Shown: positions 25,620 through 42,528, numbered from the stretch's first letter. The stretch: 52,343 bases of DNA from Patescibacteria group bacterium (GCA_004321885.1 SCQK01000002.1:1-52343), one strand, 5' to 3'. Translations and numbers: made by a program. The notes: a model not told the origin generated them from the letters alone.

Positions 25620-25645
25620 ATTGTAATGGAATGAAAAAAATAATT

Positions 25646-26539
25646 TTAAGCCGAAAAAAAATCCACAGTTTTCTGCAGGCCGTCGCGCCAGTTAATGACC
25701 GCCCGCCAATTAATCTTCTCATTAGCCGACAAATCGGCCCGGGAATCCATTATCTCATTTCCGCGATAATTCAATCTGCCGAATGCCAGCGCAGAACCGC
25801 TTTTGGTGATTCCTTTCAAATAGGCGACAGCCTCTTTGATGGAAACAGAACGGCCGTGGCCAATGCCAAACTCTTGATAATTTTCTAAAACCGGATAACT
25901 CTTAAAAACCTGAACAAACGCCCGGGCCACGTCATCCACGAATATAAAATCGCGTTTCTGGTCTCCGTTGGTCAACTCTATATTTTTAGCATTGGAGAGC
26001 AATTCTTTAATAATGGCGGGAATAAATTTTTTGGCGCTGTCGCCCGGACCGTACATTTGTTCTATTCTTAAATTAAAAAATTTGATTTTTATCTGCGGCG
26101 CGGCGTCTCTAACTATGGCCAAAAAATCCTTTTTGGTTTTAACATAAAAATGCTCATGGCTGGCAAAGCTCATTTTATCGTTAAAAAAAGTATCGGCGTT
26201 AATGAAACATTGGACTCCCGCCTGCTCACCCGCAAGCAAAAGTTGAAGGGGCAAAAGCAGATTAACTCCGGCGATTTCGTGCCAGGGTTCATCGTTTCGG
26301 CCGTAGCAAGTGGCCGTATGGATTATAGCGCTGATTTTATACTTAAAAAAACACTCTTTCAAATCATCTTCGCCTAAAAAAATTTTCACTAACCGCGGAT
26401 GATTCGCGAATGGTTTTAGGCGCTCGCCGGCAGAATTCCGGCGCACCAAAACAACCGCGCGACAGCCTTCGGCCAAAAACAATGCTGTCACTTTTGCTCC
26501 TAAAAAACCAGTGGCGCCGGTTATCAAAACTGTTTCCAT
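25646..26539 (-). CDS. NAD(P)-dependent nucleotide-sugar reductase/epimerase (SDR; CDP-abequose/paratose synthase-like size)
   Basis: 297 aa with a Rossmann motif (ITGATGFLGAKV) and an SDR core. Its size and context suggest a 4-ketoreductase acting on a CDP-4-keto-3,6-dideoxyhexose. Confidence 0.55.
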   Translation of the reverse strand: METVLITGATGFLGAKVTALFLAEGCRAVVLVRRNSAGERLKPFANHPRLVKIFLGEDDLKECFFKYKISAIIHTATCYGRNDEPWHEIAGVNLLLPLQLLLAGEQAGVQCFINADTFFNDKMSFASHEHFYVKTKKDFLAIVRDAAPQIKIKFFNLRIEQMYGPGDSAKKFIPAIIKELLSNAKNIELTNGDQKRDFIFVDDVARAFVQVFKSYPVLENYQEFGIGHGRSVSIKEAVAYLKGITKSGSALAFGRLNYRGNEIMDSRADLSANEKINWRAVINWRDGLQKTVDFFSA

Positions 26540-26540
26540 A

Positions 26541-27431
26541 TCATTTTTTTCTCCAGCCCATTTTTTTAAGAATCTTTTTTATCAATTCCTTGAAAGACAC
26601 CCAGCAGCCGCGAATTAAAAAGTAGGCATAAACTTTAGAGCGCGAAATCGGCAAGCCATATAAATTTGCTATCCAGAACACGGCTCGGGCCGTGCCCACG
26701 CTACGTTTATAATTATTCTCAAGCCCCTGGTACGAATCCCAGCGCAAATTATCATTGCGCGTTTTTATGAATGGCTCGGCCAACAAGGCAAACCGGCTGT
26801 TCTTAAAAGCCTGCAACAAGACAAAAAAATGGATGGTGCTGGTGCCGATATACTCATTTTTTGTTTCAAAATCCAGCCATGTTTTTCTAAGAAATAACTG
26901 CGTGGACATGCCGCCGAAAAAACCGACTAAATCAAGATAATTTTTAATTGACTTTACAAAATCGGCTAAGGTATCGTAAACCGCATCCTTTTCCAATTTT
27001 TGATTTGGCTGCGACAGGACCGGTTCTTTAAGCCAGTGGTCATAACCCCAGCAATTAAGCATAAAATAGGGGGCGCCGATGGTTTTAATTTTTTCAAGCA
27101 ATAACGCAAAACTGCCCGGGAAAAAACCATCATCATCGCCGATAGTCAAACAATACTGGCCCGAGCTTTGTTCAATGGCATTTAACAAATTCCGGTCAAA
27201 GCCCAGATTTTCTTGATTGCGCAAGTATCTGATATTGTCAAAATTTTCCTGGTAAGTTTTGACGACTGCCATGGTATTATCTGCACTGGCATTGTCGGAA
27301 ATAACAACTTCAACTTGCTCGCAAACTTCCTTATTATCAAATTGGCAAACAATACTGTTCAAAAGGTCTTTCAAACAGTCCGCTCTGTTGTATGTTGGAA
27401 CGCAAACGCTGATTATTTTATTGCCGGACAT
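26541..27431 (-). CDS. Glycosyltransferase family 2
   Basis: 296 aa with a GT-A N-terminus (ISVCVPTYNRADCL...VVISDNASADNT). Confidence 0.7.
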   Translation of the reverse strand: MSGNKIISVCVPTYNRADCLKDLLNSIVCQFDNKEVCEQVEVVISDNASADNTMAVVKTYQENFDNIRYLRNQENLGFDRNLLNAIEQSSGQYCLTIGDDDGFFPGSFALLLEKIKTIGAPYFMLNCWGYDHWLKEPVLSQPNQKLEKDAVYDTLADFVKSIKNYLDLVGFFGGMSTQLFLRKTWLDFETKNEYIGTSTIHFFVLLQAFKNSRFALLAEPFIKTRNDNLRWDSYQGLENNYKRSVGTARAVFWIANLYGLPISRSKVYAYFLIRGCWVSFKELIKKILKKMGWRKK

Positions 27432-28702
27432 AACTGAGGCTCTTTAATTCTTTTGTAATAGAGATACCAAAGCAGGACAACGATAATAAACATCTCCAAA
27501 GATTTGAAAGCAAAAAGCGTCATCATGGGCTGACTGCCGAAGATGGGAAAGAGCAGCCACTGGGATATGGACAAATAAAACAGGGCCTGTAAAAGAAAAT
27601 CATAAGCCGTAGACAAAGCCGGACGCATGTTCCAATAAGCGGTGAACATAAATAAATAATAAAGCCCATTATGCAGACCAGAAGCGGTGGGAAAAAATGA
27701 AACAAAAAACATTAAAGTCCCGAACTCCAGCAGAATTAAACTATTGTCGGCATCCGCTATTTTTTTTATCCTATTCATTCTATAGGTCAAGTAATAAAAT
27801 GCCGCGGAAATAATTAAAATAAGCGTCAGCGCAATAGTCTGCGCTTGGGAAAGGCTTAGTAAGTGATAGGTAAAACGATTATAAAACAGGCCCCCCAAAC
27901 TAGCGCTCCACCCGCCGGCATTGATTGAATCAGCGCCGAAACTGAACGTGGCGGCCATAAAATCCGTCAGCATGTCAAAACCAAACCACAACGTGAAAAA
28001 AGCCAGAAAAACCAGGGTGGAGTAAAAAACCGTTTTATTCTTGATGAAAAAATACGGCAGAAAAACTATCGGCATTAACTTGAACATGATGGCGGCGGCC
28101 AAAAGCAAGCCGGTAATTTTATATTTCTTTTTCAAATAGAACAGCAAACACAAGGAAAGCAAAAATATGACCGGCACATTTGTCTGCCCGTGGTCAAGAT
28201 GAAGAAAAAAGAACGGCGAAAATAAAAAAACCAAAGCGGCAATGATAAAATACCACATTTTCTTGCGCATGAAACTGCTTAAAATATAAATGGACCACAT
28301 AAACAGCGCTATCGTAAACATGCTATAGACAATCAGGGAAACATAAAAAGGAAGCAGGCTGAAAGGGATGAAAAAATAGGCCATGAGCGGGGGATAAACA
28401 AACTGAACAATAAAATGGGGCAGTGAAAGTTCGTTGGGATTGGGCTCGTTGGGCGAGGCGAAATAAAAATTCTTGCCCTGGCTCGCTTTCAAGCCAGCGT
28501 AATAGAAGAAATGATAATCTGAACCGCCGAGGCCGCGGCTAACGCTCGGCGAGAAAAGTTGGCGGTTGTCCAGTTGCAGGGGATACCAGCCGAAAACAGC
28601 CGTAATCACGAATAAAAAAACCAGCCCGCCCAAATAAAGGGCGAAAAACGGCGACCGTAGCCAGGTCTCTTTTGGCGATTCTTGATTTTCGTTAAGCATC
28701 AT
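27413..28702 (-). CDS. Polytopic membrane protein, putative GT-C-like glycosyltransferase (DUF2029/GT87-like) or O-antigen polymerase-like
   Basis: 429 aa with 10-12 TM helices and a conserved loop (SDYHFFYYAG). It lies downstream of gtrA/gtrB in the position of a GtrC-type transferase. Confidence 0.4.
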   Translation of the reverse strand: MMLNENQESPKETWLRSPFFALYLGGLVFLFVITAVFGWYPLQLDNRQLFSPSVSRGLGGSDYHFFYYAGLKASQGKNFYFASPNEPNPNELSLPHFIVQFVYPPLMAYFFIPFSLLPFYVSLIVYSMFTIALFMWSIYILSSFMRKKMWYFIIAALVFLFSPFFFLHLDHGQTNVPVIFLLSLCLLFYLKKKYKITGLLLAAAIMFKLMPIVFLPYFFIKNKTVFYSTLVFLAFFTLWFGFDMLTDFMAATFSFGADSINAGGWSASLGGLFYNRFTYHLLSLSQAQTIALTLILIISAAFYYLTYRMNRIKKIADADNSLILLEFGTLMFFVSFFPTASGLHNGLYYLFMFTAYWNMRPALSTAYDFLLQALFYLSISQWLLFPIFGSQPMMTLFAFKSLEMFIIVVLLWYLYYKRIKEPQLCPAIK

Positions 28703-30009
28703 ACGTAACCCCTTAAAAATTCATTAAAACATTCCACCACATACTCCAGCATCTCTTTGTTCAATCCCGGATAACAACCCACCCAAAAAGTGTTGTTCAT
28801 GATGAAATCAGTATTTTTTAAATCGCCGACAACGCGGTAATTGATTTTATTGTCTATAAAATATGGCTGCTTCAATAGATTGCCGGCGAACAAATAACGG
28901 GTGGCAATATTATATTCCTGCAAAAACCGTACCAGCTGGTCGCGATTAAACGGCGCGTCTTCTTTGACAGTCAGCAAAAAGCCAAACCAGCTTGGCTCGG
29001 CCTTTTCTTCCCACACAGGCAAAACAAAATATTTTTCGTATTTTTTCAGGCCATCATATAAAATCTGAAAATTTTCCCGGCGCCTCTGTATAAAATCGTC
29101 AAGCTTCTCCAACTGGGCCACGCCAATGGCGGCTTGCAGGTCAGTCGGCTTCAAGTTATACCCGATTTCCGAATAAATATACTTGTGGTCATAGCCAAAC
29201 GGCAACTGGCCCAATTGCCAGCCAAATCTCATGCCGCAGGTGTTATCATGCCCGGTTTTACAGCAGCAATCCCTGCCCCAGTCTCTGATAGACCTGATAA
29301 TTTTGTTGAGCAGAGGGTCGTTCGTAAACACGGCCCCGCCTTCACCCATAGTGATATGGTGCGCCGGGTAAAAACTCAAGGTCGCCAGATGTCCAAAAGT
29401 GCCGGTTCGCTGGCCGTTAAAAGTTGACCCGAGGGCGTCGCAGTTGTCTTCTATCAGCCACAAATCTTTTTCTTTGCATAACTTTACGACAGCGTCAAGA
29501 GCAAACGGGTTGCCCAGAGTATGGGCAATCATAATGGCCCTGGTTTTTGGGCCGAGGGCTTTTTTAATTTCTTCAATGCTCGCGTTATAAGTTCCCAATT
29601 CCACGTCAACAAAAACCGGAACCAAGCTATTTTGAATTATCGGATTGACAGTGCTGGGGAAACCCGCGGCCACTGTAATAACCTCATCGCCGTCTTTTAA
29701 TTTCTTATTCCCTAATCTGGGAGACCGCAAAGCCGCGACCGCCAAGAGGTTGGCCGACGACCCGGAGTTGGTAATATTCACATACGGCACTCCCAGCCAG
29801 CGGCCGAGCCTGGCTTCAAATAAGTCGGAAAATCTTCCCTCGGTCCACCAGCCATCTAGAACCGCTTCGGTCGCCAGCAAAATTTCTTTTTCGTCAAAAA
29901 CTTTTCCAGAAATGGGAATCGATGTTTCTCCAGGAATAAATTTTTTAAACGGAAATTTTTCCCTATACTCTTGAATCAGCCTACTCTTCAATTCTTCGTT
30001 CATAAACAA
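28699..30009 (-). CDS. ddhC: CDP-6-deoxy-D-xylo-4-hexulose 3-dehydrase (E1; PMP-dependent DegT-fold dehydrase with [2Fe-2S] site)
   Basis: 436 aa DegT/DnrJ/EryC1 fold in which the Schiff-base Lys is replaced by His (FYPAHHITMGEGGAVFT). A Cys cluster (RDWGRDCCCKTGHDNTC) follows. These features and the length (about 437 aa) are diagnostic of E1/RfbH rather than an aminotransferase. Confidence 0.85.
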   Translation of the reverse strand: MFMNEELKSRLIQEYREKFPFKKFIPGETSIPISGKVFDEKEILLATEAVLDGWWTEGRFSDLFEARLGRWLGVPYVNITNSGSSANLLAVAALRSPRLGNKKLKDGDEVITVAAGFPSTVNPIIQNSLVPVFVDVELGTYNASIEEIKKALGPKTRAIMIAHTLGNPFALDAVVKLCKEKDLWLIEDNCDALGSTFNGQRTGTFGHLATLSFYPAHHITMGEGGAVFTNDPLLNKIIRSIRDWGRDCCCKTGHDNTCGMRFGWQLGQLPFGYDHKYIYSEIGYNLKPTDLQAAIGVAQLEKLDDFIQRRRENFQILYDGLKKYEKYFVLPVWEEKAEPSWFGFLLTVKEDAPFNRDQLVRFLQEYNIATRYLFAGNLLKQPYFIDNKINYRVVGDLKNTDFIMNNTFWVGCYPGLNKEMLEYVVECFNEFLRGYV

Positions 30010-30370
30010 AACGTTTGTTTAGATAAAAAGCTATGAAAGCCATGGGCAGAATCAGAATTGCTCCGGAAACATAATTGCTTACGCCTTTTAAGTTAAGAAA
30101 ACAAAGAAAAACAAGATTGATTAAATAGGTAAAAGCGTAAACACCAACAAACTTAAAAAGTAAATCGCGACGGTAAGAGGCGAAGACCAGCCGGCCGACG
30201 GTCTGAAAATTGAACAAAACCCCCAAAATAGTGGCCAGGAGCGCGGCCAAAGCATAATGCAGGCCGAAAAAAATCATAAGAGCAAAAACTCCATAGCCAA
30301 AAATTGTGTTTATTCCGCCGACCGCTAAAAAACGGATGAATTTATTCTCAAAAATTCGCCTCAAATTCAT
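29981..30370 (-). CDS. gtrA: GtrA-family small membrane protein (lipid-linked sugar flippase subunit)
   Basis: 129 aa with 4 TM helices and a GtrA signature (FIRFLAVGGINTIFGYGVFALM). Confidence 0.75.
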   Translation of the reverse strand: MNLRRIFENKFIRFLAVGGINTIFGYGVFALMIFFGLHYALAALLATILGVLFNFQTVGRLVFASYRRDLLFKFVGVYAFTYLINLVFLCFLNLKGVSNYVSGAILILPMAFIAFYLNKRFVYERRIEE

Positions 30371-31305
30371 ACATTAAAATTTATTCTTTCCTTTTCAATC
30401 ACCAGCGGCCGGTTTTTTACCTGGGTGTAAATGGCCGCGATATATTCCCCCAAAATGCCGACGAAAAAAAGCTGCATTGAGCCGAGAAAAAAGAACCCAA
30501 TGATAAGCGGCGCCAATCCCAACTGGAATCTCTGCCAATAAATTAACTTATAAATTAAATAGGCGAGGCCGAGCGCGAAACTTAGGGCCGATAGGACAAA
30601 GCCAATAAAGCTGGCCAACCGCAAAGGCAATTTAGAGTGATTGACAAAACCCAGCATGGCCACGCCGTACATGGTATACCAATTCCTGCCTTTTGATTTT
30701 CCTTTCTTTCTTTCATTCTGCGTGTATTTGAGCTCGGCATGCTGGAAGCCAACCTCGTTAATCATGCCGCGAAAATAAGGATCCGGATCGTCAAATTTTC
30801 TGATGGCTTCAATAAACTCCCGGTCATAAAGCCCGAAGCCGTGAAAATTTCTAATCTGTTCAATATCCGCGATTTTCTTGATTAAAAAATAATACAGCTT
30901 GCGGATATTAAACATTATGCCGCCCTCCTCGCTTTTATTTTTTATGCCGACAACGACCTTGTAGCCCTCTTCCCATTTTTTGATAAAATCCTTCATCAGG
31001 GCAGGCGGGTCCTGCAAATCGGAGACCAGCGATATAACCGCGTCACCCCTGGCCTGCAGCAAAGCGTGATGCAGGGAAGAGGCATGAAAATTGCGCGAGT
31101 TAACTATAATTTTTACATGCTTGTCTGCTTGCGCGATGCCTTTTAGTATGTTCACGGTCTCATCCGTGGAAGCGTTATCAATAAAAAGATGCTCGTAGTC
31201 GTACTGGGGCAGCTGGGCGAAAATTTCTCTAACTTGCAGATAGACATCCTTAATATTTTCTTCTTCGTTGTACGCGGGGGTGACCACGCTGATTAATTTT
31301 GCCAT
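30367..31305 (-). CDS. gtrB: GtrB/ArnC-type polyprenyl-phosphate glycosyltransferase (GT2 with C-terminal TM helices)
   Basis: 312 aa with a GT-A domain (ISVVTPAYNEEENI...DNASTDET) and two C-terminal TM helices. It lies upstream of gtrA. Confidence 0.8.
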   Translation of the reverse strand: MAKLISVVTPAYNEEENIKDVYLQVREIFAQLPQYDYEHLFIDNASTDETVNILKGIAQADKHVKIIVNSRNFHASSLHHALLQARGDAVISLVSDLQDPPALMKDFIKKWEEGYKVVVGIKNKSEEGGIMFNIRKLYYFLIKKIADIEQIRNFHGFGLYDREFIEAIRKFDDPDPYFRGMINEVGFQHAELKYTQNERKKGKSKGRNWYTMYGVAMLGFVNHSKLPLRLASFIGFVLSALSFALGLAYLIYKLIYWQRFQLGLAPLIIGFFFLGSMQLFFVGILGEYIAAIYTQVKNRPLVIEKERINFNV

Positions 31306-31313
31306 AAAATTTT

Positions 31314-32360
31314 TCAGATAAAACTTTTTATCGTCCGGTAAAAACCGTCGCGCACGCTAAACCGGCATTGATAGCCAAGCTTTTGAATTTTTGCAATTGA
31401 CAGTGTGGGTCTGACTTTATTCTTGTTTTCCAAATAGTCTTTGCCGGCCGCGCGCTTTTCGTAAATCACCTTTAATTTTTTTTCCGGCCACATCGCCACG
31501 AGCAAATTCGCCAATTCGCCTATGGATATTCGCCCGTTTTCATTGCCCACATTATAACTTTCACCCCGCTTGCCGTTTAATAGCACGTTAAAAAACCCGG
31601 CGGTAGCGTCGGCAATATAACAGAAAGTGCGCACCGGCGAGCCGTCGCTTTTAATCACTATGTCTTTATTACGAACGACATTTGAAACAAACTCGGCAAA
31701 AACCCTTTTATCATTTTCCAAGTCTATTGTGGGGCCGTAGGTGTGTTCGGGCCTGACGGCCACGGCCGGCACCTGGTACTGGTGATGCCAGCACTGGCAC
31801 ATATTTTCACCCATGCGCTTGCTTTCGCCATAACAGCTTCTGATGTCCATCTGATTCAAATACCCGCTGTCTTCTTCGCTGATGAGCGGCTTGTCCATGG
31901 TCCCGCAAACTTCCCCGCTGCTAAAAAATAAAAATCCCTTGGATTTCTTGGCTCTGGCCAATTCCAACAAATTTTTGGTGCCAAAAACATTCGGGGCTAT
32001 CACTCCAACCGGGTCAATGCCGTAAAACTGGGAACTGGCCGGACTGGCGGCGTGGATGATATAATCAATGCTTCCTTCAAAATCCAATTTTTCGGTGATG
32101 TCGTCGCATCTTATATAAAAAAACGGCGAATCCAAAAAATCGCCAAATCTCTTTTTGGCTTTTTTCAAATTTCGGCAGAGGGCAATAATTTTTAAATTCA
32201 AGCCGGGAATTTTTTCGCTTAAAAACGCCAACATGAAAACCATATAAGACGCCAGCATCCCATTCGCTCCGGTAACCAAAACCGTGGCGTTTTTAAACTT
32301 CTCCCAATCTAAACCGCTTTGGTAAATAATTTCTAAATCTTCTTTAATGATATCATTCAT
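31314..32360 (-). CDS. NAD-dependent nucleotide-sugar epimerase/dehydratase (SDR)
   Basis: 348 aa with a Rossmann fold (VLVTGANGMLASYM) and a YxxxK site (YGESK). Confidence 0.6.
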   Translation of the reverse strand: MNDIIKEDLEIIYQSGLDWEKFKNATVLVTGANGMLASYMVFMLAFLSEKIPGLNLKIIALCRNLKKAKKRFGDFLDSPFFYIRCDDITEKLDFEGSIDYIIHAASPASSQFYGIDPVGVIAPNVFGTKNLLELARAKKSKGFLFFSSGEVCGTMDKPLISEEDSGYLNQMDIRSCYGESKRMGENMCQCWHHQYQVPAVAVRPEHTYGPTIDLENDKRVFAEFVSNVVRNKDIVIKSDGSPVRTFCYIADATAGFFNVLLNGKRGESYNVGNENGRISIGELANLLVAMWPEKKLKVIYEKRAAGKDYLENKNKVRPTLSIAKIQKLGYQCRFSVRDGFYRTIKSFI

Positions 32361-32361
32361 G

Positions 32362-33522
32362 TTAATATATTTTGACTATTTCATTTTTTAGCTTCAATTC
32401 ATCTTTTATTTGGCGTGCCACCTCTTCCTGATAAGAAAAAGTTGAGATTAAAATGGGGGCGTTTTCTTTGATTTCTCGCGGAGACTTGATTTCAACCCCG
32501 TTGATTTTCTTTCCGTGATATTTGACGTTTGAATCCACGAAATACAATACCTTGGCCAGGTCCAGGCCGGCGCCCACCAGGCGCTGGGTGTGCGTGCCCA
32601 CGCCCCAAATGATTATTTTTTCGTGCTTGCCCAAAACTTCGCTCAAAAACTTGTTCACCTCGATGTCCAGTTGCGCGCATTTTGATATGTAGTCGCCGAG
32701 TTTCTTCTCGGTAATATCATCTTTGACAATTTCAGACTTAAGTTGAGGGGAAAACTTTGCTAAAACAAAAATGTCCGGGTCTATCGTCTGATTGACCGTG
32801 TTTTCATTTTTTTGCATTTCCACGATTTCAAAACCAAACTTCCCCAACAAATTTTTTAAGGACACATCGCTGAAATAATCAATATGCTCTATGCTGAACT
32901 GCTGAAACGGGGTAAAAATATACGAATCAAAACGCGTCGCGTCCGGCACCTCCACAAACAACAGACCGCCTTCGTTTAATAATGACTGAATTTTATCCAC
33001 GGAGCCGCTAAAATCCACCAGGTGCTCCAATACAGCTGACAAAATTATTACGTCAAATTTGTTCTCCGCGCTAAAATTGGAAATTGTGTCAGCGACGGCG
33101 TCAATGCCGTAGAGTTCCTTTACTGTTTTGACGCAAGTCGGCGAAGGGTCAATGCCCAAAAGATTGACGTAGCCTTTTTCCTTGAGCATATTGAGCAGAC
33201 AGCCAGTGGAGCATCCAATGTCCACTATTTTGGCGCGCTTGTCTTTGAGATGGGGAACCAAAAAATCAATAATCTTTTTAAAATATTTTTGGTAATCCTC
33301 CGAAACAACGCCATCCTTATAATTAAACTCCCACTTGGACATTATTTCATAGTATTTATTAAATTCCTCTTGTCCGGGAATATTATCAGCAAAAACAAAA
33401 CCGCATTTTTGGCACACCACAACATCATAGCCGTCCATTATGGCAATGGCTTTATTGCCGAAATTCTGTCTAAAAAATTTTTTCTTTCCCTCGGATAAAC
33501 AAATCGGACAAGGCCTAAGCAT
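32362..33522 (-). CDS. NDP-hexose C-methyltransferase-like (TcaB9/TylC3 architecture: Zn-ribbon plus SAM-MT plus C-terminal domain)
   Basis: 386 aa with an N-terminal Cys4 zinc ribbon (CPICLS...CQKCGFVF), a class I SAM motif (IVDIGCSTGCLL) and a C-terminal C-methyltransferase-like domain. Confidence 0.55.
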   Translation of the reverse strand: MLRPCPICLSEGKKKFFRQNFGNKAIAIMDGYDVVVCQKCGFVFADNIPGQEEFNKYYEIMSKWEFNYKDGVVSEDYQKYFKKIIDFLVPHLKDKRAKIVDIGCSTGCLLNMLKEKGYVNLLGIDPSPTCVKTVKELYGIDAVADTISNFSAENKFDVIILSAVLEHLVDFSGSVDKIQSLLNEGGLLFVEVPDATRFDSYIFTPFQQFSIEHIDYFSDVSLKNLLGKFGFEIVEMQKNENTVNQTIDPDIFVLAKFSPQLKSEIVKDDITEKKLGDYISKCAQLDIEVNKFLSEVLGKHEKIIIWGVGTHTQRLVGAGLDLAKVLYFVDSNVKYHGKKINGVEIKSPREIKENAPILISTFSYQEEVARQIKDELKLKNEIVKIY

Positions 33523-33524
33523 AT

Positions 33525-34544
33525 TTAAGATTGATAATGTTGTTTTAACCTTTCAGCAGCGCTGTTTAAGTTATCCTCCGGGAACAATCTGTATTTAACA
33601 ATATTGCAGTCCGCGCATGGCCCGCCCAAGATTTTGGCTCCTTCCAGCATTGTCCTTCTAAATTTTTGAAAGACAGGACCATTCCAGATTTCGGTTACTG
33701 ATTCTTTGTTGCAATCGCCCATAATGCCCGGATAATCCCAAGAATAGCAAGGAACAACCTTTCCGTCCGGATTGATTTGCATGTGAAAAAAAGGCTGGGG
33801 GCAAATTTTAACTTCCGAAACAGGCAGGCCAAACTGGGTTAGGTTCATTTCTTTGGCGCCGGGCATTTCTTCGTAATTCACACCGGCGTGGATGGGCACG
33901 GTATGCTCAACGGCTATAGAATCGCAAATGTCTCCAAAAATATCATAAAATTTTTCTTCGTCTTCTTTGTTGTCCAAAGCCGTGTCCACGATTTTGAAAT
34001 AGGCGTGCGCTTGGCCCTTGTGCTCGTAAAAATATCGTAAATTTCCCACGAATTTTTCAAAATCCAAATTAGCTTGGGAAATTTCTTGATATTTTTCCGC
34101 CGTAGTGCCCTGCAAAGAAACCACCAGCCGGTTCAACCCGGCAACGAGCAAGGCGTCGCTCATTTGCGGGGTAAGCAAAGAGGCGTTGGTTAAAATTTCA
34201 ATAACATTCGCTATCTTTTTTTCGGCCGTGTAGCGCACCATTTCCACAATGTCTTTATGCAAAAGCGGCTCGCCGATGCCGACAAAACGGATAACCTTGA
34301 TTTTGCCGGGGAATTTGGCCATGTCATCCACGCATTTTTTGTACAAACTTAAATCCATCATTATTTTATCGGAAATAAACCCGCGCTTGGAAGGCTCCAC
34401 TGAAAAAATACAATAACAACACTTAAAAACACAGGCGTAAATGGGGAAAATTTGTACAGCAAAAGGCGTGTCCAAAGGAAGCGCTTCCGAGAGTGGAGTT
34501 CTTTTGCCTCCCGGGGCTTGTCCACCTATATTTTTTGCTTTCAT
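33525..34544 (-). CDS. Radical SAM enzyme with C-terminal SPASM/twitch domain
   Basis: The CX3CX2C motif (CVFKCCYC) and a C-terminal Cys-rich auxiliary cluster region (PCYSW...GGPCADC) are present. The start is trimmed to MKAKNIGG (ATG at 34544), which overlaps the upstream gene stop as ATGA. Confidence 0.7.
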   Translation of the reverse strand: MKAKNIGGQAPGGKRTPLSEALPLDTPFAVQIFPIYACVFKCCYCIFSVEPSKRGFISDKIMMDLSLYKKCVDDMAKFPGKIKVIRFVGIGEPLLHKDIVEMVRYTAEKKIANVIEILTNASLLTPQMSDALLVAGLNRLVVSLQGTTAEKYQEISQANLDFEKFVGNLRYFYEHKGQAHAYFKIVDTALDNKEDEEKFYDIFGDICDSIAVEHTVPIHAGVNYEEMPGAKEMNLTQFGLPVSEVKICPQPFFHMQINPDGKVVPCYSWDYPGIMGDCNKESVTEIWNGPVFQKFRRTMLEGAKILGGPCADCNIVKYRLFPEDNLNSAAERLKQHYQS

Positions 34545-36211
34545 ACCAAGGGCGCTAACGCGAATTGCTCGGCGTATTTTTTCCAAAATGCCGATTGAGA
34601 AACTATGGCATTATATTTTGACCTGTATTCATCGTACTTATCCGCCTGGTTCATCATTTTATAACATTTGGCCGCGAAATAATAAGCAAAGGCATGGTCG
34701 TCTCTCGCTTGAATCGTGTTGGCAAAACCCTTCAGGGCCGTGGCATAATTGCCCAGCCGGAATTCCGTGTTGAGCGCGAAATTAAGTTCCAGATTCATGG
34801 TATAGGCTTTTTCCTGAATATATTCCGGGGTAAAATCATCGGTCCCGATAACCGCTCTCTTAAAATCACAGCTCATGTAATCCCCCTTGATAAAATTTTT
34901 CTGCAGGCACGTATCCAGCATTTCACTGCCCACCAGGGGCGTGGCCATGCTGATTCTAAACCAGGAGGCGTTAAGCGTTTTCAAAAAAGCCAGGGCATCT
35001 TCAATATCCTGTTTGGTTTCCCCGGGCAAACCGATGAGTATGGACACGTCCGAAGCAATGCCCAGCGCGCGACAATCGCGCAGAACCCGCGACACTATGG
35101 AGAGATTAAGCGGCTTGTGCATAATCTCGCGCAGGACCCGTTCACTGCCCGATTCCACTGACAGTATCAAATTATCCATGCCGGTGCTTTTTAGCGCTTC
35201 CAGCATTTTATAATCCAGCGCGTACAAGGCCAAAGAAGACGGGAAAAAAGACGTAAGCTTCAACTCGTTTAAGATATTCACGATTTCAAAAGCCCTGTGC
35301 CTGTTCACCAGCAAATGGTCGTCAAAAAACACCGCGGTCTGGGCGCCGTACTCGTCCCGCAGGCGCATCAAGTCCTCGCGCACTCTTTTCAAACTGTGAA
35401 AGCGCACGACCCGGCCGTGCACGGTGTGCGAAGCGCAAAAACAGCATTTATGCGGGCATCCCCGCGACGTCATTATGGGCATGCCTTTTTTTTGCCGTTC
35501 TTTTTCCAGGGGAAACAGGCCCAACAGCGAATGCTCGCGGTAATCATCCGCGTTGAGAATGCTGAAATCATAAAATGGAATTTCATCCAAATCTTCAATA
35601 AAATCAAACTGGAACATCTGGTTGTTTTCGGCTTTTTCCCTCGTAATCCAGCTAAGATGATTGCGCAGTAATGCTTTTTTATCCCCGGCTTTGACCAGCG
35701 CGAGCAGGGGTTTTTCCGCCTCGCCATAGCAAATCGCGTCAAAGCAGTCGCTGGCCTTAAACATTTCCCGGTACATATTGGTTGGCACCCCGCCGCCGGC
35801 CATGAGCATAGACGCGGGGAAAATTTTGCGCGCCGTTGCCGCCAAATCCAGCATATTGTAATAGGCCGGGGCAAACAGCGCGGATATGCCAACCATGGTG
35901 GGAGCGAAATCTTTCCACTCTGGCGCGGAAAGAGTTTCAAAAAATAATTCGGCAAAAGAATTATAATTAAAACTTTCTATTTTATTCAAAACCACGTTAA
36001 AATCCAGCAGCCTGACTTCCACCGGCGCGTTTTTTTTCAAATAAGCGCTCAGCGAAATAAGCCCGATAGGCATTTCGGTAAGCACGCTACCGTAGTTTCC
36101 CGTCCTTTTTTGCACGACGCGCTCATTAAAAGCGGGCCGAACAAAACTTTCAAACTTAATGTAAGGCGGGACGATAAATAAAATTCGTTCCATAGTAATA
36201 GACTTATTCAT
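34541..36211 (-). CDS. Cobalamin-binding (class B) radical SAM enzyme
   Basis: It has an N-terminal B12-binding Rossmann-like domain and a radical SAM core (SRGCPHKCCFCAS). The start could be MNKS (36211), MERIL (36193), or the annotated 36262. Length is about 555-573 aa. Confidence 0.7.
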   Translation of the reverse strand: MNKSITMERILFIVPPYIKFESFVRPAFNERVVQKRTGNYGSVLTEMPIGLISLSAYLKKNAPVEVRLLDFNVVLNKIESFNYNSFAELFFETLSAPEWKDFAPTMVGISALFAPAYYNMLDLAATARKIFPASMLMAGGGVPTNMYREMFKASDCFDAICYGEAEKPLLALVKAGDKKALLRNHLSWITREKAENNQMFQFDFIEDLDEIPFYDFSILNADDYREHSLLGLFPLEKERQKKGMPIMTSRGCPHKCCFCASHTVHGRVVRFHSLKRVREDLMRLRDEYGAQTAVFFDDHLLVNRHRAFEIVNILNELKLTSFFPSSLALYALDYKMLEALKSTGMDNLILSVESGSERVLREIMHKPLNLSIVSRVLRDCRALGIASDVSILIGLPGETKQDIEDALAFLKTLNASWFRISMATPLVGSEMLDTCLQKNFIKGDYMSCDFKRAVIGTDDFTPEYIQEKAYTMNLELNFALNTEFRLGNYATALKGFANTIQARDDHAFAYYFAAKCYKMMNQADKYDEYRSKYNAIVSQSAFWKKYAEQFALAPLV

Positions 36212-37304
36212 TCTCAAACAATCGCGGGTCTTCGTGAAACGGCTTCCGTGTTTTGTCTTCATCCGTAAAAACCTCGGCGCACGGCACCGGCAATGGCTTG
36301 CCGTAAACGCGCGGCTCCAGATATTTTTTCATGAATGCGCGGTCTTCGGCAATGGTGCAGGTGTCCACGTACTCGCCGAAATACTTGATGTCAAACCCGC
36401 GCTTAATAATGTCTTTCAGCGGCTCTTGCAAAACATTGCCGATGGACACGTGAATGTAGGGGCAGGGCAAAACATCGCCGTATTGGGTGACGGAAAACAT
36501 GCCTTTCAAAGCAATACAGCCCATATTCAAGCCATAGGCCGGGGTCAAATGCGTGAAGACCTTGTATTTTTTTTCCAGCTCGCGCATATAGGCCATGTCT
36601 TTTTTATCCACCAGGCCGTCATATTTTCTTTCCCAGTTGCCCACGGGCTTGGCATAGCTGACAAATACGCCAATGCCCTTATCAGTAAAGTATTCCAAAA
36701 ATTTTATGAACTCATCGGAATACAAACGGTCTTTCCAAACAACGGTCTGCATAAAAACATCCAGCCCGGCGGTCTTGGCATTATCCACCGCTTTCAGCAC
36801 GCGCTCGTATGCGCCGGGCGCGTGCCGAAACTCATCATGGCTTTTGGCGTCAAAGCTGTCCAGGCTGATTTGCATGCGGTCCACGCCAATGCTTTTGAGA
36901 TGCTTGGCGCGCTCTGCGGTCAGCAGAAAGCCGTTGCTGTCGCAGTTGATGTAAAATTTTTGCGGGTCAATGGCCGCCACCAGGGCGTCAAAATCCTTGA
37001 AAACGAGCGGCTCGCCGCCAGTGATGGTTACCCGCGCCAAACCCAGCTCGTCGGCCTGCCGAAAGAGCTCGCGCACGTCCGCGATGGTCATCTCGCGGGC
37101 GCCGTCGCTGCGGCTCTGAAATCTTTTGATGGAGCAATGCTCGCACTTGAAATTGCAGGTGTAATTGTATTGAAATTGAATAATGGCAATGCTTTCGCCG
37201 CGCCTAATTTTTTCGTCAAATTTCAAAATTTTTTCGTAGACGAGCGGCTTATTTTCTTTCAGATAATTGCGCTTGCCCTGTTCACGCTGGGAAAGTTGCT
37301 CCAT
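36204..37304 (-). CDS. Radical SAM enzyme with SPASM domain
   Basis: 366 aa with CX3CX2C (CNFKCEHC) and C-terminal auxiliary-cluster cysteines (CPYIH...C...C). Confidence 0.7.
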   Translation of the reverse strand: MEQLSQREQGKRNYLKENKPLVYEKILKFDEKIRRGESIAIIQFQYNYTCNFKCEHCSIKRFQSRSDGAREMTIADVRELFRQADELGLARVTITGGEPLVFKDFDALVAAIDPQKFYINCDSNGFLLTAERAKHLKSIGVDRMQISLDSFDAKSHDEFRHAPGAYERVLKAVDNAKTAGLDVFMQTVVWKDRLYSDEFIKFLEYFTDKGIGVFVSYAKPVGNWERKYDGLVDKKDMAYMRELEKKYKVFTHLTPAYGLNMGCIALKGMFSVTQYGDVLPCPYIHVSIGNVLQEPLKDIIKRGFDIKYFGEYVDTCTIAEDRAFMKKYLEPRVYGKPLPVPCAEVFTDEDKTRKPFHEDPRLFENE

Positions 37305-37312
37305 AATCGTAA

Positions 37313-37375
37313 TGAGTGAACAAAATTGTTTTGAATATCAAAACAATTTTTGAACGAATTAGATTATATGCCTAA
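37313..37375. promoter_or_regulatory. Two perfect hairpins in the ddhB-rSAM intergenic spacer (13-bp stem AAAATTGTTTTGA/TCAAAACAATTTT and TATATGCCT-AA-AGGCATATA)
   Basis: Seen directly in the sequence. The first hairpin lies about 20 nt upstream of the rSAM start codon on the minus-strand mRNA. Confidence 0.4.
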
Positions 37376-38350
37376 AGGCATATATTTTTTATTGTTAATT
37401 TTGTTTTGATACCAGGCAAATGTTTCTTTGATTCCTTCCGCAAACGGGTAGCGCGATTGCCAACCCAACACCTTGGCCGCTTTTTCAAAATTAAGGCTCT
37501 GCTCGGGAATTTCATTTTTTTGATTGTTCAAAATTTCGTGTTTAATTTTTACGCCGATAATGTCGGAAATTTTGGCCACCAAATCCAAAACCGAAAAATT
37601 CTGGCCCGAGCTGAAGTTAAACGCCTCGCCCCTGGCCGCGGCAATGTTTTCGGCCAGGCAAAGATAGCCGTCCACCACGTCTGGCGCGTACACATAATCC
37701 CTCTTAAAATGCCCGTCGCTGCGGATTTGTAAAACTGAATTTTCCAGCGCGGCTTTCATTATCCCCGGGATAATGCGGTTGAAATTCAAATCACCGGGCC
37801 CGTAGATATTGCCGAACCGGCTCACAGTGGCCGGCAGGCCGTAGGTTTTGGCGTATGTTTGCGCGAGCAAATCAGCGCAGGATTTGGACGCGTCATAAGG
37901 ATGATCGCCGGCCAGGGCCTGATTTTCCTCGGCCAAAAGGCAGTGCTTGCCATAGGCCTTGTCGCTGGAAGCCACTATCACGGCGCGGGTAGAGGGCGAT
38001 AAACGCGCGGCTTCCAAGATATTGACCGTGCCCATGATATTTGTATCCAATGTTTCGTAAGGATTAACATAGGCCGTGGGCACGATGGGCTGGGCCGCCA
38101 CGTGAAAAATATAATTTATTTCATGCTTGGAAATTAAATCAAACATCCTTTCCTTGTCTTTCAAGTCTCCGTACGAGCAAACCACCTGCTCATCCAATTT
38201 TTCCGAATAAAACAAAGACAACGGATCGCGGCTGCGGCACAAACAAACGATTTTAGCGGGCTTTAATGCCAACAGCCGGCTCACCAGATGCGCACCGACC
38301 AGTCCGGCGCCGCCGGTAACAAAAATATTTTGTCCGGTTAAATGCGACAT
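37364..38350 (-). CDS. ddhB: CDP-glucose 4,6-dehydratase-like SDR
   Basis: 328 aa with a Rossmann fold (IFVTGGAGLVGAHL) and a YxxxK site (YDASK). It lies immediately downstream of the cytidylyltransferase. Confidence 0.65.
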   Translation of the reverse strand: MSHLTGQNIFVTGGAGLVGAHLVSRLLALKPAKIVCLCRSRDPLSLFYSEKLDEQVVCSYGDLKDKERMFDLISKHEINYIFHVAAQPIVPTAYVNPYETLDTNIMGTVNILEAARLSPSTRAVIVASSDKAYGKHCLLAEENQALAGDHPYDASKSCADLLAQTYAKTYGLPATVSRFGNIYGPGDLNFNRIIPGIMKAALENSVLQIRSDGHFKRDYVYAPDVVDGYLCLAENIAAARGEAFNFSSGQNFSVLDLVAKISDIIGVKIKHEILNNQKNEIPEQSLNFEKAAKVLGWQSRYPFAEGIKETFAWYQNKINNKKYMPLGI

Positions 38351-39162
38351 AGAGGATTTGTTTTTGTTTCATGCCAAACTTTCCAAAACGGGTCTTTGTG
38401 CCACAGCTCGTTCATGTCCTCCACTTCCTTATACGTATCCATGCATTTCCACTTGCCCTGATGCGCGTAAATAGAAAGCTGACCTGCCCTGGCCAGGGGA
38501 GCAAAGATTGATTCAATCATGCTATTTTCAGTCAACAAGTCAAAGATGTCTTTCTTGAATATCATAAAGCCGCCGTTGACATAATCAGAATCGCCCGACC
38601 GCACTTCATTGTAATCAGTCACCTTGTGCTGAAAAAAACCGCGCAATTTTTTGGTCTGATGGTCTATGTCCAGCATGCCAAAGCGCGAAGTGAGCTTGAT
38701 GCCGGTAATGGTGCCCAAAGTATTCTGATTTTTATGAAAATTGAGCAAATCCTGGATATTGATGTCTCCTACCCCGTCGCCATAGGTTACCATAAATTCT
38801 TCATCGCCGTCCAGATATGGCCGCAGGCGGCGCACGCGCTCGCCGGTCAGGCTCTCGGGGCCGGTTTCGGCGAAGGTTATTTTGAAATGGTCGCAATCAT
38901 TGTTGTGAAAGGTGACTTCGTGATTGTGAGTGTCCAGCGTAAAATCATTCGCCAGACTGCGCCAATTCAAAAAATACTGCTTGATCATATCGCCCTTGTA
39001 GCCCAGCGCCAGAATAAATTCATTGAAGCCGTAATGGGCGTATATTTTCATGATATGCCACAATATCGGCTTGCCGCCCACCAAAACCAGCGGCTTTGGC
39101 TTAAATTCCGTTTCCTCCTTCATGCGCGTGCCTATGCCGCCGCATAAAATAATGGTTTTCAT
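38338..39162 (-). CDS. ddhA: Glucose-1-phosphate cytidylyltransferase
   Basis: 274 aa with N-terminal MKTIILCGGIGTRMKEETEFKPKPLVLVGGKPILWHIMKIYAHYG, closely matching RfbF/DdhA. Confidence 0.85.
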   Translation of the reverse strand: MKTIILCGGIGTRMKEETEFKPKPLVLVGGKPILWHIMKIYAHYGFNEFILALGYKGDMIKQYFLNWRSLANDFTLDTHNHEVTFHNNDCDHFKITFAETGPESLTGERVRRLRPYLDGDEEFMVTYGDGVGDINIQDLLNFHKNQNTLGTITGIKLTSRFGMLDIDHQTKKLRGFFQHKVTDYNEVRSGDSDYVNGGFMIFKKDIFDLLTENSMIESIFAPLARAGQLSIYAHQGKWKCMDTYKEVEDMNELWHKDPFWKVWHETKTNPLCRI

Positions 39163-39174: not shown

Positions 39175-40062
39175 TTAAAATTCCACCCAGCTATTGGCAA
39201 AAACGCTGTCATATTTATTAAAATTATTCCAATTCTTGGGAGCGATAACTATTTTGGCGCGGTTGGTATTTAGCCAGGCCGCCCACCAGCTAAATGTGCT
39301 GGACGACATAATACTGTGTTTGCACAAACTCATCAGACGTAGGTCAAGATAGGAATTTTTGCCAATATTATTGTCAACAATGACGCACTGCGCCGGTATT
39401 TTTAAATTTGCTTTGGCCCAACTGGGGTCATCGGAAAAAATAAAAAAAACCGGCTCGCTTACTTTTTTTAATATATATTCACAAGCCTCCTGACAATAGC
39501 GCAAATCCCGCTTTTGCGCAAATGCCGCCTTGGCCGGGTCGCCCTGAATATGGTCGCCGCGGCGGATATGAAGAAAAACCGAATTAGTGGCGGCTATCAT
39601 GTTGGCCAATTCTTTGTTTTTCCCGGCGAGCGGCTCCTGGAAAGAAAAATCCCGCCTGATAGCATCGGCCGCGTCCGCGAAATAATTTTCATGGGCCCAA
39701 ATACCGGACAGATAGGCCTTTTTTCCCAAACCCAAAATTTTAGGCTCAAAGCATTTGGGAGCAGCCTCTTCTATCACATAGCCGCGCTCAAAAATTTTCG
39801 CCAGTTTGTTCAATAAAAAAGCTATGACAAACGCCAAATTATTAAAATAAAAAGCGACCCTGGATAAAAAAGTAAAATTTGCTTTAAGATTAAAAATACC
39901 CAGCCCATAACTGCGAAAAGTAAAATCTTTTCTCGGCAAACGATGCAATAAAAAAGTCAGGTCAAGTTTTAATTTAACACCCCGCTTCAAAGCCAAGCGC
40001 CGGGCGCAAGCGTATTGAAACATCTGATTGCCAAGCCCGCCGATAAGTTTAACTGTTATCAT
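39175..40062 (-). CDS. Glycosyltransferase family 11 (alpha-1,2-fucosyltransferase-like), second copy
   Basis: 295 aa with GGLGNQMFQYA and HIRRGDH motifs. Confidence 0.75.
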   Translation of the reverse strand: MITVKLIGGLGNQMFQYACARRLALKRGVKLKLDLTFLLHRLPRKDFTFRSYGLGIFNLKANFTFLSRVAFYFNNLAFVIAFLLNKLAKIFERGYVIEEAAPKCFEPKILGLGKKAYLSGIWAHENYFADAADAIRRDFSFQEPLAGKNKELANMIAATNSVFLHIRRGDHIQGDPAKAAFAQKRDLRYCQEACEYILKKVSEPVFFIFSDDPSWAKANLKIPAQCVIVDNNIGKNSYLDLRLMSLCKHSIMSSSTFSWWAAWLNTNRAKIVIAPKNWNNFNKYDSVFANSWVEF

Positions 40063-40070
40063 ATAATTGA

Positions 40071-40895
40071 CTATACCCCCGCGATGGATCCCGACTCAGT
40101 CGGGATGACAATCGGCTTCACAAACCAAAAACAACCACAGCCATAATCCTGGCTGTCGGCCAATGCTTTGGGCGGATTGATTACCAGCTCGCCGTCGCCG
40201 GCGCGCGGTATCAAAGCAAATTCTTTAAGCTCCAGTTCCTTAAAATATTCTTTGACCTGCTCGTAACTGTAAATGCGATGCGCGTTAAACATTATCTTTG
40301 GTTTGCCAATCGGCGCCACAAACAGCAAGACGCCGCCCGGGGCCAAGACCCTTTTTAATTCGGAAATCGCCTTCAAATCACCATCATAATCCAGTTTATC
40401 GCCATAGCGCCCCAGGCCAACATGCTCTATCACGTGCATACAGGAAAGCGATTCAATTTCATTGTCCTTAAACGGCAATTTTGAGACATCGGCCTGGCCG
40501 CAGGTGAGGCCCGACAGCGCCAAGGGCGCGGGGCGAAAATCATAAAAGCGCACGGGCACAAAAGCCGAAACCAAAGCACAAAAATACAGGCTGGAAGAAA
40601 TGTCAACGTGAAAAGCCGGCCTGGCGGCGGCCAATACTCGCGCGGCCCAGGCCGTGTGATAAATATAGTGCCGGTCAAAGCCGGTTTGGGCCGTGGCTTC
40701 GCCGATGATGGGCAGAAGGTCTTTCCAGCCAACGGCCAAACGCGGCGCTTTGCCTGCCAAAGAACGAAAGTAAAACCAATCGCGGAAAAACCTCGGATAG
40801 AGCAAAAATCTCTTTAAGCCGTAAATTTTTAAAAGCAAATTAGCCAACATTCTGGGCATTCGGTGGTAAATTTTTTTCAGCCATTCCCTGTTCAT
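40071..40895 (-). CDS. Class I SAM-dependent methyltransferase
   Basis: 274 aa with a methyltransferase fold and a Methyltransf_11-like motif region (VLAPGGVLLFVAP). Confidence 0.5.
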   Translation of the reverse strand: MNREWLKKIYHRMPRMLANLLLKIYGLKRFLLYPRFFRDWFYFRSLAGKAPRLAVGWKDLLPIIGEATAQTGFDRHYIYHTAWAARVLAAARPAFHVDISSSLYFCALVSAFVPVRFYDFRPAPLALSGLTCGQADVSKLPFKDNEIESLSCMHVIEHVGLGRYGDKLDYDGDLKAISELKRVLAPGGVLLFVAPIGKPKIMFNAHRIYSYEQVKEYFKELELKEFALIPRAGDGELVINPPKALADSQDYGCGCFWFVKPIVIPTESGSIAGV

Positions 40896-42498: not shown

Positions 42499-42508
42499 AC
42501 CGATTGTC

Positions 42509-42528
42509 ATTCCTGCGCAAGCAGGAAT
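42509..42528. promoter_or_regulatory. Perfect 8-bp inverted repeat ATTCCTGC-GCAA-GCAGGAAT 11-30 nt upstream of the HTH gene start (candidate operator or leader hairpin)
   Basis: Seen directly in the sequence. Confidence 0.4.

Follow-up and report, generated by a model that had tools for sequence, protein, structure and literature searches.

The window analyzed here is one whole contig of 52,343 nucleotides from a metagenome-assembled genome (MAG) of a Patescibacteria group bacterium (GCA_004321885.1, SCQK01000002.1:1-52343). With moderate confidence, its minus-strand genes at positions 28699-39162 could be regarded as the core of a pathway for a CDP-activated C4-acyl-branched 3,6-dideoxyhexose of the yersiniose/erwiniose/caryophyllose type, tailored by radical S-adenosylmethionine (radical SAM) enzymes, and for the delivery of this sugar. 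Such a pathway would vary a scheme already published for acyl-branched sugars (PMC9306805), because a YerE/JanthE-like carboligase, dependent on thiamine diphosphate (ThDP), is the most likely maker of the branch, together with a NeuB-type synthase. An earlier note on this DNA had predicted C-branching as one of the reactions performed by the genes of this region and had not recognized the pathway as a described one. The first idea was right in spirit, but the carboligase and the synthase feeding it are both encoded outside of 28699-39162. As to the second, no characterized product of such a cluster was found in the literature searched; the scheme itself is published, and the cluster is shared by dozens of genomes, cultured ones included, that represent over a dozen bacterial lineages.

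The region comprises ten minus-strand genes that form one tightly packed operon, where neighbors overlap or are no more than 59 nt apart, enclosed in a minus-strand polysaccharide locus at about 14.8-42.6 kb. All the genes named in the earlier note were found there with Pfam and NCBIfam; it had overlooked the GT2 and GtrA genes inside the region, a GT87 gene downstream, an RmlC/RmlD-like pair and a ThDP/NeuB/HAD/NUDIX unit. In the order of transcription, the operon encodes:

38338-39162, minus strand: glucose-1-phosphate cytidylyltransferase-like (DdhA-like) protein (TIGR02623 265 bits, cut-off 300, next family 73 bits; PF00483)
37364-38350, minus strand: CDP-glucose 4,6-dehydratase-like (DdhB-like) extended short-chain dehydrogenase/reductase (SDR) (TIGR02622 195 bits, cut-off 278)
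36204-37304, minus strand: SPASM/twitch-like radical SAM enzyme, rSAM_A (PF04055 99 bits, PF13186 23 bits)
34541-36193, minus strand: radical SAM enzyme with a B12-binding domain (B12-type enzyme), 550 amino acids (aa) (PF02310 47.7 bits, cut-off 32.1; PF04055 70 bits)
33525-34544, minus strand: radical SAM enzyme with a BtrN-like twitch domain, rSAM_B (PF13186 58 bits, PF04055 53 bits)
32362-33522, minus strand: methyltransferase composed of a Zn-ribbon, a class I SAM methyltransferase domain and a C-terminal domain (in Pfam, Methyltransf_23 and general methyltransferase models only)
31314-32360, minus strand: extended SDR, candidate ketoreductase of the tailoring cassette (PF01370 135 bits; no equivalog match)
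30367-31305, minus strand: GtrB/ArnC/PgfS-like GT2 (PF00535 92 bits; PgfS 177 and ArnC 110 bits, both below cut-off)
29981-30370, minus strand: GtrA-family small membrane protein, putative flippase for a lipid-linked sugar (PF04138 52 bits; four hydrophobic segments)
28699-30009, minus strand: E1/RfbH/DdhC, CDP-4-keto-6-deoxyglucose 3-dehydrase dependent on pyridoxamine phosphate (PMP) and [2Fe-2S] (NF011936 690 bits, cut-off 423)

Judging from homology, CDP-4-keto-6-deoxyglucose could be formed by the cytidylyltransferase-like and 4,6-dehydratase-like proteins. The best PDB match of the latter is a CDP-glucose 4,6-dehydratase (1rkx, 129 bits, just 5 bits above a dTDP-glucose dehydratase), with which its S-D-K and YxxxK motifs align. 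Subsequent removal of the 3-hydroxyl, leading to CDP-4-keto-3,6-dideoxyglucose, would be catalyzed by E1. Both motifs from which E1 had been recognized in the earlier note are present: the PMP motif with His instead of Lys, YPAHHITMGEGG, is identical to that of E1, and the Cys motif DCCCKTGHDNTC (C-x-C-x7-C) is aligned with the known E1 cluster motif. A ColD or transaminase identity, named in advance as a possible refutation, is ruled out by the scores, 562 bits for 3bcx (the Yersinia E1 structure) versus 209 bits for ColD, and by the His in place of Lys. By its sequence, the window E1 is a true 3-dehydrase. The window thus shares DdhA-like, DdhB-like and high-scoring DdhC/E1 proteins with the ddh/asc pathway (DdhA-D followed by Abe/Prt/Tyv or AscE/F), but differs from it by the lack of DdhD/E3 and of a clear terminal set, and by DdhA and DdhB scores below the equivalog cut-offs.

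The genes that could supply the branch were revealed at 45198-51144 by tblastn of the neighbor families of related loci, described below, against the window:

49585-51144, minus strand: NeuB-family synthase fused to a cupin domain (NeuB/cupin), candidate maker of a 3-deoxy-2-ulosonic acid (PF03102 136 bits, PF07883 28 bits)
48546-49460, minus strand: HAD-IIB phosphatase (PF08282 34 bits; TIGR01484 below cut-off)
46818-48542, minus strand: YerE/JanthE-like ThDP-dependent carboligase (all three TPP_enzyme domains)
45691-46734, minus strand: RhaT-like (DMT) permease (PF06379 38 bits; RhaT NCBIfam model 146 bits, below cut-off)
45198-45653, minus strand: NUDIX-fold protein (PF00293 22.7 bits; 66% identical to the family member of related locus L057)

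YerE-like enzymes add alpha-keto acids, produced by clustered aldolases, to CDP-4-keto-3,6-dideoxyglucose (Steitz et al. 2022, PMC9306805); this type of scheme leads to yersiniose, erwiniose, caryophyllose and gastriose (PMC9306805). The best PDB match of the window ThDP enzyme is 8rph (347 bits, E 1e-102), compared to 231 bits for 5ahk and about 210-220 bits for acetolactate synthases. 8rph is JanthE, a YerE-like carboligase which joins keto-acid donors to ketones and is an orphan as regards its natural substrates (PMC12188165). A housekeeping acetolactate synthase is ruled out by this best match and by the scores of all acetolactate synthase NCBIfam models, which lie far below cut-off. At the level of homology, the protein is a ketone-accepting YerE-like carboligase, which would decarboxylate the keto acid and put the acyl group on the C4 ketone.

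The keto acid could be a 3-deoxy-2-keto acid, synthesized by NeuB/cupin, according to its homology, from phosphoenolpyruvate (PEP) and an aldose; HAD and NUDIX could serve the release of the aldose or dephosphorylation of the product. NeuB/cupin scores about 120 bits with the PseI and NeuB models, versus cut-offs of 340-400. It shares the NeuB TIM-barrel and a HAD phosphatase neighbor with NeuB, PseI, LegI and KDN-9-P synthase; it differs from these nonulosonic acid synthases by the additional C-terminal cupin, and its acid is proposed to be a ThDP substrate and not to be activated. No CMP-ulosonic acid synthetase is present beside NeuB/cupin. No class II or other aldolase is encoded in the window; NeuB/cupin and HAD take that place.

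Genes of this unit are 66-76% identical to those flanking the radical SAM cassette in related loci L004, L006 and L057 (69-76% for NeuB, HAD and ThDP in comparison with L004). Thus, NeuB/cupin is 69% identical to the gene adjoining the cassette in L004 and L006, the closest relatives, where it follows the cassette directly, and HAD-IIB is 76% identical to the neighbor of NeuB/cupin in L004. In the latter locus an EamA-type gene lies between the HAD and ThDP genes.

Conservation of the neighborhood, a check that the earlier note had proposed, was assessed on 78 genomic loci fetched via alignment of homologues of the B12-type enzyme (58-79% identical, from many phyla), with all open reading frames (ORFs) clustered. 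Neighbors were counted over 79 loci, 41 of which have full 10-kb flanks. The commonest neighbor of the B12-type enzyme is the ThDP enzyme (about 600 aa), found in 58 of the 79 loci and in 35 of the 41 full-flank ones. It is followed by rSAM_A (45 of 79, adjoining the B12-type enzyme), NUDIX (43, typically between the B12-type enzyme and rSAM_B), E1 (39), NeuB/cupin (38), TcaB9-type methyltransferase (35), rSAM_B (27), cytidylyltransferase (27) and the polyprenyl-phosphate GT2 (23). The corresponding full-flank counts are 28 for rSAM_A, 28 for NUDIX, 27 for E1 and 25 for NeuB/cupin, with an HpcH aldolase in 6. E1 is accompanied by the ThDP enzyme in 26 of these 27 loci. NeuB/cupin (38 loci) and HpcH/HpaI aldolase (11 loci) never occur in one locus (49 loci), and one of the two accompanies the ThDP enzyme in 30 of 35 full-flank loci; for this reason NeuB/cupin is read as the keto-acid maker.

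In the cultured Geobacter sp. SVR (complete genome; L085, AP024469.1 4560336-4581421) the genes form one contiguous operon: nucleotidyltransferase, dehydratase, E1, NeuB/cupin, ThDP, HAD, rSAM_A, B12-type radical SAM, NUDIX-like, rSAM_B and methyltransferase. The radical SAM proteins of the window are 72%, 56% and 64% identical to those of Geobacter sp. SVR, as compared with 38% for the cytidylyltransferase (the first gene of that operon), 29% for the dehydratase and 37% for the ThDP enzyme. Greater conservation of the radical SAM enzymes than of the sugar enzymes beside them suggests that the cassette is strongly constrained or was transferred horizontally. For two of the radical SAM enzymes, there are also homologues labelled Nanoarchaeota, Pacearchaeota and Bathyarchaeia.

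The ORF of the B12-type enzyme spans 34541-36262 (573 aa); gene callers begin at MERIL, which gives 550 aa, and the start is probably at 36193. All NCBIfam models score below cut-off, the best being a P-methyltransferase family (133 bits) and HpnJ (130 bits). Cys246/250/253 (CxxxCxxC) are invariant, and B12-binding and radical SAM domains are seen in the AlphaFold2 (AF2) model (pLDDT 86.7). The top Foldseek match is AprD4 (6fd2, E 4e-21), followed by CysS, OxsB, TsrM, MgmA and TokK, and AprD4 is the nearest solved relative by sequence as well as by fold. AprD4 is a radical SAM 1,2-diol dehydratase that serves an aminoglycoside sugar; it has the same domain layout, yet is reportedly cobalamin-independent. 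Therefore, the earlier designation of a class-B (cobalamin) radical SAM enzyme stands for the domains, both of which pass Pfam cut-offs, but methylation, although plausible, is not established; an AprD4-like dehydratase or rearrangase reaction is the alternative.

Two further radical SAM enzymes had been described as SPASM-type, and Radical_SAM and SPASM matches of Pfam are indeed found in both. No NCBIfam model reaches its cut-off in rSAM_A. In the alignment of its homologues, Cys50/54/57, Cys263 and Cys281 are invariant and Cys316 is nearly so; the enzyme probably carries a three-Cys auxiliary cluster. The folds nearest to its AF2 model (pLDDT 80) are MoaA, SkfB, SuiB, viperin and BlsE. Homologues 70-80% identical to rSAM_A are distributed over many bacterial lineages, and some are labelled archaeal. 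The ORF of rSAM_B extends over 33525-34586, with a probable start at 34544 after the gene call in L084; its twitch region matches BtrN (E 6e-11) and, more weakly, BlsE and DesII, and its translation contains a pair of Cys spaced by about 20 residues, with a CxxC after them. For the B12-type enzyme and rSAM_A, fold searches gave general relatives only, and the reactions are not settled by them. AprD4, BtrN, DesII, BlsE and the B12 C-methylases GenK/GenD1 are radical SAM enzymes acting on sugars or nucleotides, and among solved structures the nearest are AprD4 for the B12-type enzyme, the BtrN twitch domain for rSAM_B and MoaA/BlsE for rSAM_A. However, the known carbohydrate radical SAM enzymes, with 13-22% identity to those of the window, serve intermediates of aminoglycoside, macrolide and nucleoside antibiotics, not CDP-sugars for surface glycans.

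Variants of the cluster contain additional families. Extra radical SAM families were found in L017, L029, L056 and L060 (c16) and in L026, L052, L062, L067 and L078 (c27); at the N-terminus, both have a domain similar to the one that sugar C-methyltransferases possess at the C-terminus (a weak PF08484 match for c16). Additional B12-type radical SAM enzymes (c22) also occur. A family of about 270 aa lacking a Pfam match (c21), which is not represented in the window, forms a pair with rSAM_A, for the most part in loci of proteobacteria (L058, L060, L065, L071, L072, L073, L082, L083).

The methyltransferase had been assigned a TcaB9/TylC3 architecture. A profile of nine orthologues aligns with TcaB9 (E 2e-10, residues 34-238) and with TylC3 (4rv9, E 2e-10, residues 97-370). 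Four N-terminal Cys are invariant in the family, as are E212 and H213, whose counterparts in the alignment are the E-H of 'YDEH' (TcaB9) and of 'YHEH' (TylC3). The Glu-His pair is common to the window enzyme and TcaB9/TylC3/KijD1, and a layout in three parts, namely Cys4 Zn-ribbon, class I SAM domain and C-terminal domain, appears to be so as well; the window enzyme differs from them by Ser opposite the Tyr of the TcaB9 'YDEH' stretch and by the lack of a passing match to Methyltransf_13 or Methyltransf_14 of Pfam. According to these alignments, the enzyme is a distant relative of TcaB9/TylC3 with a shared layout and no clear member of that family. A weak PF08484 match was obtained for its homologue in L001, and a TcaB9-type paralogue with all three Pfam domains (c6), distinct from the window methyltransferase, is encoded in 35 other loci.

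The cassette of rSAM_A, the B12-type enzyme, rSAM_B, the methyltransferase and the SDR could tailor the sugar or its side chain. The order rSAM_B-methyltransferase-SDR is kept in L006, L011, L013 and L014, which suggests oxidation, C-methylation and reduction as the most economical reading. rSAM_B could act as a BtrN-like dehydrogenase; the methyltransferase could then C-methylate beside the new ketone in the manner of a TcaB9-like enolate methylase, and the ketone could be reduced by the SDR. Methylation of an unactivated carbon or an AprD4-like diol dehydration could be performed by the pair of rSAM_A and the B12-type enzyme.

Delivery of the finished sugar could be realized by the products of the GT2 and GtrA genes and of a gene which lies directly 3' of E1 and overlaps its stop by 4 nt:

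27413-28702, minus strand: GT87 (GT-C type) membrane glycosyltransferase (PF09594 85 bits; about ten hydrophobic segments)

Since GT2 has two C-terminal hydrophobic (transmembrane) segments, the Gtr-type trio of a GT2 with C-terminal transmembrane helices, a GtrA-family protein and a GT-C transferase is complete and adjacent. Such proteins, the GT-C enzyme being a multi-pass one, are encoded together in the Gtr/Arn/Pgf systems (GtrA-GtrB-GtrC; ArnC-ArnT); in the window the donor would be a CDP-sugar instead of a UDP-sugar, and the GT-C enzyme belongs to GT87, a family best known from mycobacterial mannosyltransferases. From these family assignments, GT2 would load the sugar on polyprenyl phosphate and GtrA would flip it across the membrane. 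GT87, which likely uses a polyprenyl-phosphate-linked sugar, would attach it outside the membrane to a Wzx-dependent, probably fucosylated, surface glycan.

Several observations weigh against the pathway as outlined. The roles proposed for the radical SAM enzymes are based on distant similarity (the 13-22% identity mentioned above) and gene order. The cytidylyltransferase and the dehydratase both remain under their equivalog cut-offs. The ThDP/NeuB genes of the window are a separate transcription unit about 4.4 kb away, with HTH, MBL-fold and SDR genes in between. E1 does not occur within 10 kb in 14 of the 41 full-flank loci, including the close relative L004, which means that the cassette has no strict need of a 3-deoxy acceptor. 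Because the loci were gathered through the B12-type enzyme, their statistics describe the neighbors of this enzyme and not all YerE-like clusters. Finally, in agreement with the earlier note, an E3/DdhD-type (ferredoxin-reductase-type) protein is lacking among the 57 contig ORFs scanned with Pfam and NCBIfam, though E3 may be encoded elsewhere in the genome. There is also no ferredoxin-reductase-type domain in the Pfam-annotated related loci L001-L004 and L085, and no recurrent FNR-like family was detected by a motif regular expression, which is a weak test, over 1,225 ORFs of the related loci.

The absence of a canonical 3,6-dideoxyhexose tailoring set had been claimed as well. The contig contains no clear terminal C4 reductase/epimerase set (Abe, Prt, Tyv, AscE/F), but a weak pair 7 kb downstream of the region had been missed:

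20800-22147, minus strand: RmlC-like/RmlD-like pair (RmlD-like TIGR01214 193 bits, cut-off 224; RmlC-like Pfam E 1e-10, no NCBIfam match)

It is possible that this is an AscE/AscF-like pair acting on a CDP-4-keto sugar. Two products could then be synthesized: an ascarylose-type 3,6-dideoxy-L-hexose by E1 and the pair, and another sugar by the radical SAM cassette and the ThDP enzyme acting on 3-hydroxy CDP-4-keto-6-deoxyglucose. RmlA and RmlB genes to go with the pair are missing from the whole contig, E1 stands apart from the nucleotidyltransferase and dehydratase genes, after GtrA, and the loci devoid of E1 are in line with this scheme. The near-constant company of E1 and the ThDP enzyme in full-flank loci, the position of E1 inside the Geobacter sp. 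SVR operon and the weakness of the RmlC-like match make it unlikely.

Where the cassette acts could also be conceived otherwise. In the version of the earlier note, the radical SAM enzymes and the C-methyltransferase act straight on CDP-4-keto-3,6-dideoxyhexose, which is C-methylated, epimerized or deoxygenated, and the ThDP/NeuB genes at 45-51 kb would then be unrelated. Its genes do make up one operon with a promoter-like site of its own, separate from the ThDP/NeuB unit, and in L001 just a methyltransferase and an SDR gene are found near the B12-type enzyme. This version is nevertheless improbable, given that the ThDP enzyme is the commonest neighbor of the B12-type enzyme, that its gene is part of the same operon in Geobacter sp. 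SVR and that the protein is JanthE-like and no acetolactate synthase. A possible, if rather doubtful, alternative is that the radical SAM/methyltransferase/SDR cassette tailors not the final sugar but a second portion of CDP-4-keto-6-deoxyhexose. NUDIX and HAD would free the modified 6-deoxy aldose, NeuB (or HpcH) would extend it with PEP or pyruvate, and the ThDP enzyme would graft it onto the E1 product, resulting in a sugar of C14 or more. The gene order nucleotidyltransferase, dehydratase, rSAM_A, B12-type enzyme, NUDIX, rSAM_B, methyltransferase, SDR, NeuB/cupin, HAD, ThDP in L011, L013, L014, L006 and L004 corresponds to such a linear route. Among full-flank loci with an aldol-type enzyme (n = 31), NUDIX occurs in 24 and HAD in 22, compared to 4 and 3 in those without it (n = 10). 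There is precedent in the NeuB-family enzymes of the Leg/Pse pathways, which take sugars released from NDP-sugars. On the other hand, the NUDIX assignment is weak at 22.7 bits, and the HAD enzyme by NeuB may just as well take the phosphate off a 9-phosphate product, which is what happens in the KDN and Neu5Ac-9-P routes. As for a maturation module of a peptide that is made by ribosomes and modified after translation (RiPP) with an overlooked precursor, a refuting alternative named in the earlier note, SPASM and B12-type radical SAM enzymes are common in RiPP clusters and weak NCBIfam matches to RiPP maturases do exist. No RiPP model comes near its cut-off, however; the largest operon gap of 59 nt leaves no room for a precursor gene, and the three radical SAM genes keep their sugar-enzyme neighbors in dozens of genomes of many phyla, which rules out such a module for practical purposes.

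If the C4-acyl-branched 3,6-dideoxyhexose pathway is accepted, its closest counterparts are the described acyl-branched pathways (YerE/YerF; ErwE/F/I/J; MMAR_2331-2333; gastriose; PMC9306805, PMC12247030). Common features are the front end of CDP-glucose, 4,6-dehydratase and E1, the YerE-like ThDP carboligase with a dedicated enzyme for the alpha-keto acid donor, SDR reductases with a SAM methyltransferase (in the putative R. palustris cluster) and a product destined, as proposed for the window, for a surface glycan. In those pathways the keto acid is made by a class II pyruvate aldolase and not by NeuB/cupin; an aldolase version is present in 11 related loci. The window cluster is further distinguished by the lack of E3, by the addition of a NUDIX protein, of HAD phosphatases and of two to three radical SAM enzymes, and by delivery via a polyprenyl-phosphate carrier and a GT-C enzyme. 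No radical SAM enzyme is reported for the described acyl-branched pathways in the accessible literature.

The acyl-branched 3,6-dideoxyhexose pathway is thus already known; the NeuB-type donor synthase, the three radical SAM families, NUDIX/HAD and the polyprenyl-phosphate delivery are not described in the accessible literature. Full-text search found no publication linking radical SAM enzymes with CDP-dideoxyhexose or YerE-type clusters; the JanthE paper and the survey of Krug et al. from 2024, reportedly an in silico study of more than 200 YerE-like clusters that is mentioned in a 2025 review, were beyond its reach and may mention such genes.

Nucleotide sugars destined for cell-surface glycans are very rarely the substrates of radical SAM enzymes, and here three families without an NCBIfam equivalog are tied to a CDP-deoxysugar/ThDP branching pathway. 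The set is widespread, highly conserved and experimentally tractable, its reactions and product being deduced from sequence. The cluster also hints at a physiological setting in which JanthE-like carboligases may work. The sugar is likely displayed on the surface of bacteria of the candidate phyla radiation (CPR); these and the archaea-labelled carriers depend on cell-cell contact. Since the cluster is present in cultured organisms (Geobacter sp. SVR, Rhodoferax sp. U11-2br, Holophaga foetida DSM 6591, Telmatospirillum siberiense), the product could be determined directly. A tentative extension, considered rather unlikely, is that the radical SAM families perform chemistry new on nucleotide-activated sugars. 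Very large (C12-C16), C-methylated, possibly carbocyclic higher sugars would then be displayed on Patescibacteria, archaeal MAGs of the DPANN type and many anaerobes, the cassette having spread horizontally as a unit. Iterative side-chain methylation at an unactivated carbon, radical dehydration and radical C-C ring closure are possibilities for such chemistry.

The head of the polysaccharide operon adjoins the cytidylyltransferase-like gene:

39175-42564, minus strand: HTH_17, Wzx-type flippase, DUF268 methyltransferase and GT11 fucosyltransferase-like genes (Pfam matches)

The HTH_17 gene heading this operon is preceded by a strong promoter-like site at 42584-42555 (minus strand; 11 of 12 positions matched). 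A divergent MBL-fold gene, a FabG-like SDR gene and a 216-aa ORF lacking a family stand between it and the ThDP/NeuB unit; over this stretch, HTH_17 gene included (42253-44995), the G+C content is about 0.53, above that of the glycan genes. Part of the locus (22000-34000) has a G+C content of 0.40-0.42, versus 0.50-0.53 in the flanks and contig ends, which is typical of horizontally exchanged glycan loci.

The polysaccharide locus and the sugar pathway take up about 38 kb of the contig, a large share for a Patescibacteria genome of roughly 1 Mb. YchF, encoded on the same contig, is 70-77% identical to its best database matches, and all the named ones are Magasanikbacteria or Patescibacteria. 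The surrounding locus also encodes Wzx, FkbM and DUF268 methyltransferases, several GT2s and a GT-D. Fucosyltransferase-like genes of the GT10 and GT11 types and a GDP-L-fucose synthase-like SDR gene (474 bits, cut-off 500) are located at 22165-23226, 39175-40062 and 51144-52181 on the minus strand, and the contig stops before any Gmd gene could appear. Taken together, they suggest that the surface glycan of this CPR bacterium is fucosylated.

At 17015-20015 (minus strand) there are two ORFs, of 331 and 667 aa, for which Pfam gives no significant family; with about 11 hydrophobic segments, the longer protein could represent a polymerase, a ligase or a GT-C-type enzyme. A second NUDIX gene, weakly resembling GDP-mannose mannosyl hydrolase, is found at 14423-17018 (minus strand), where it overlaps the end of a 724-aa fusion gene encoding an Acyl_transf_3 membrane domain and an SDR domain. 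Type IV pilus genes lie at 1.2-6.3 kb of the window.

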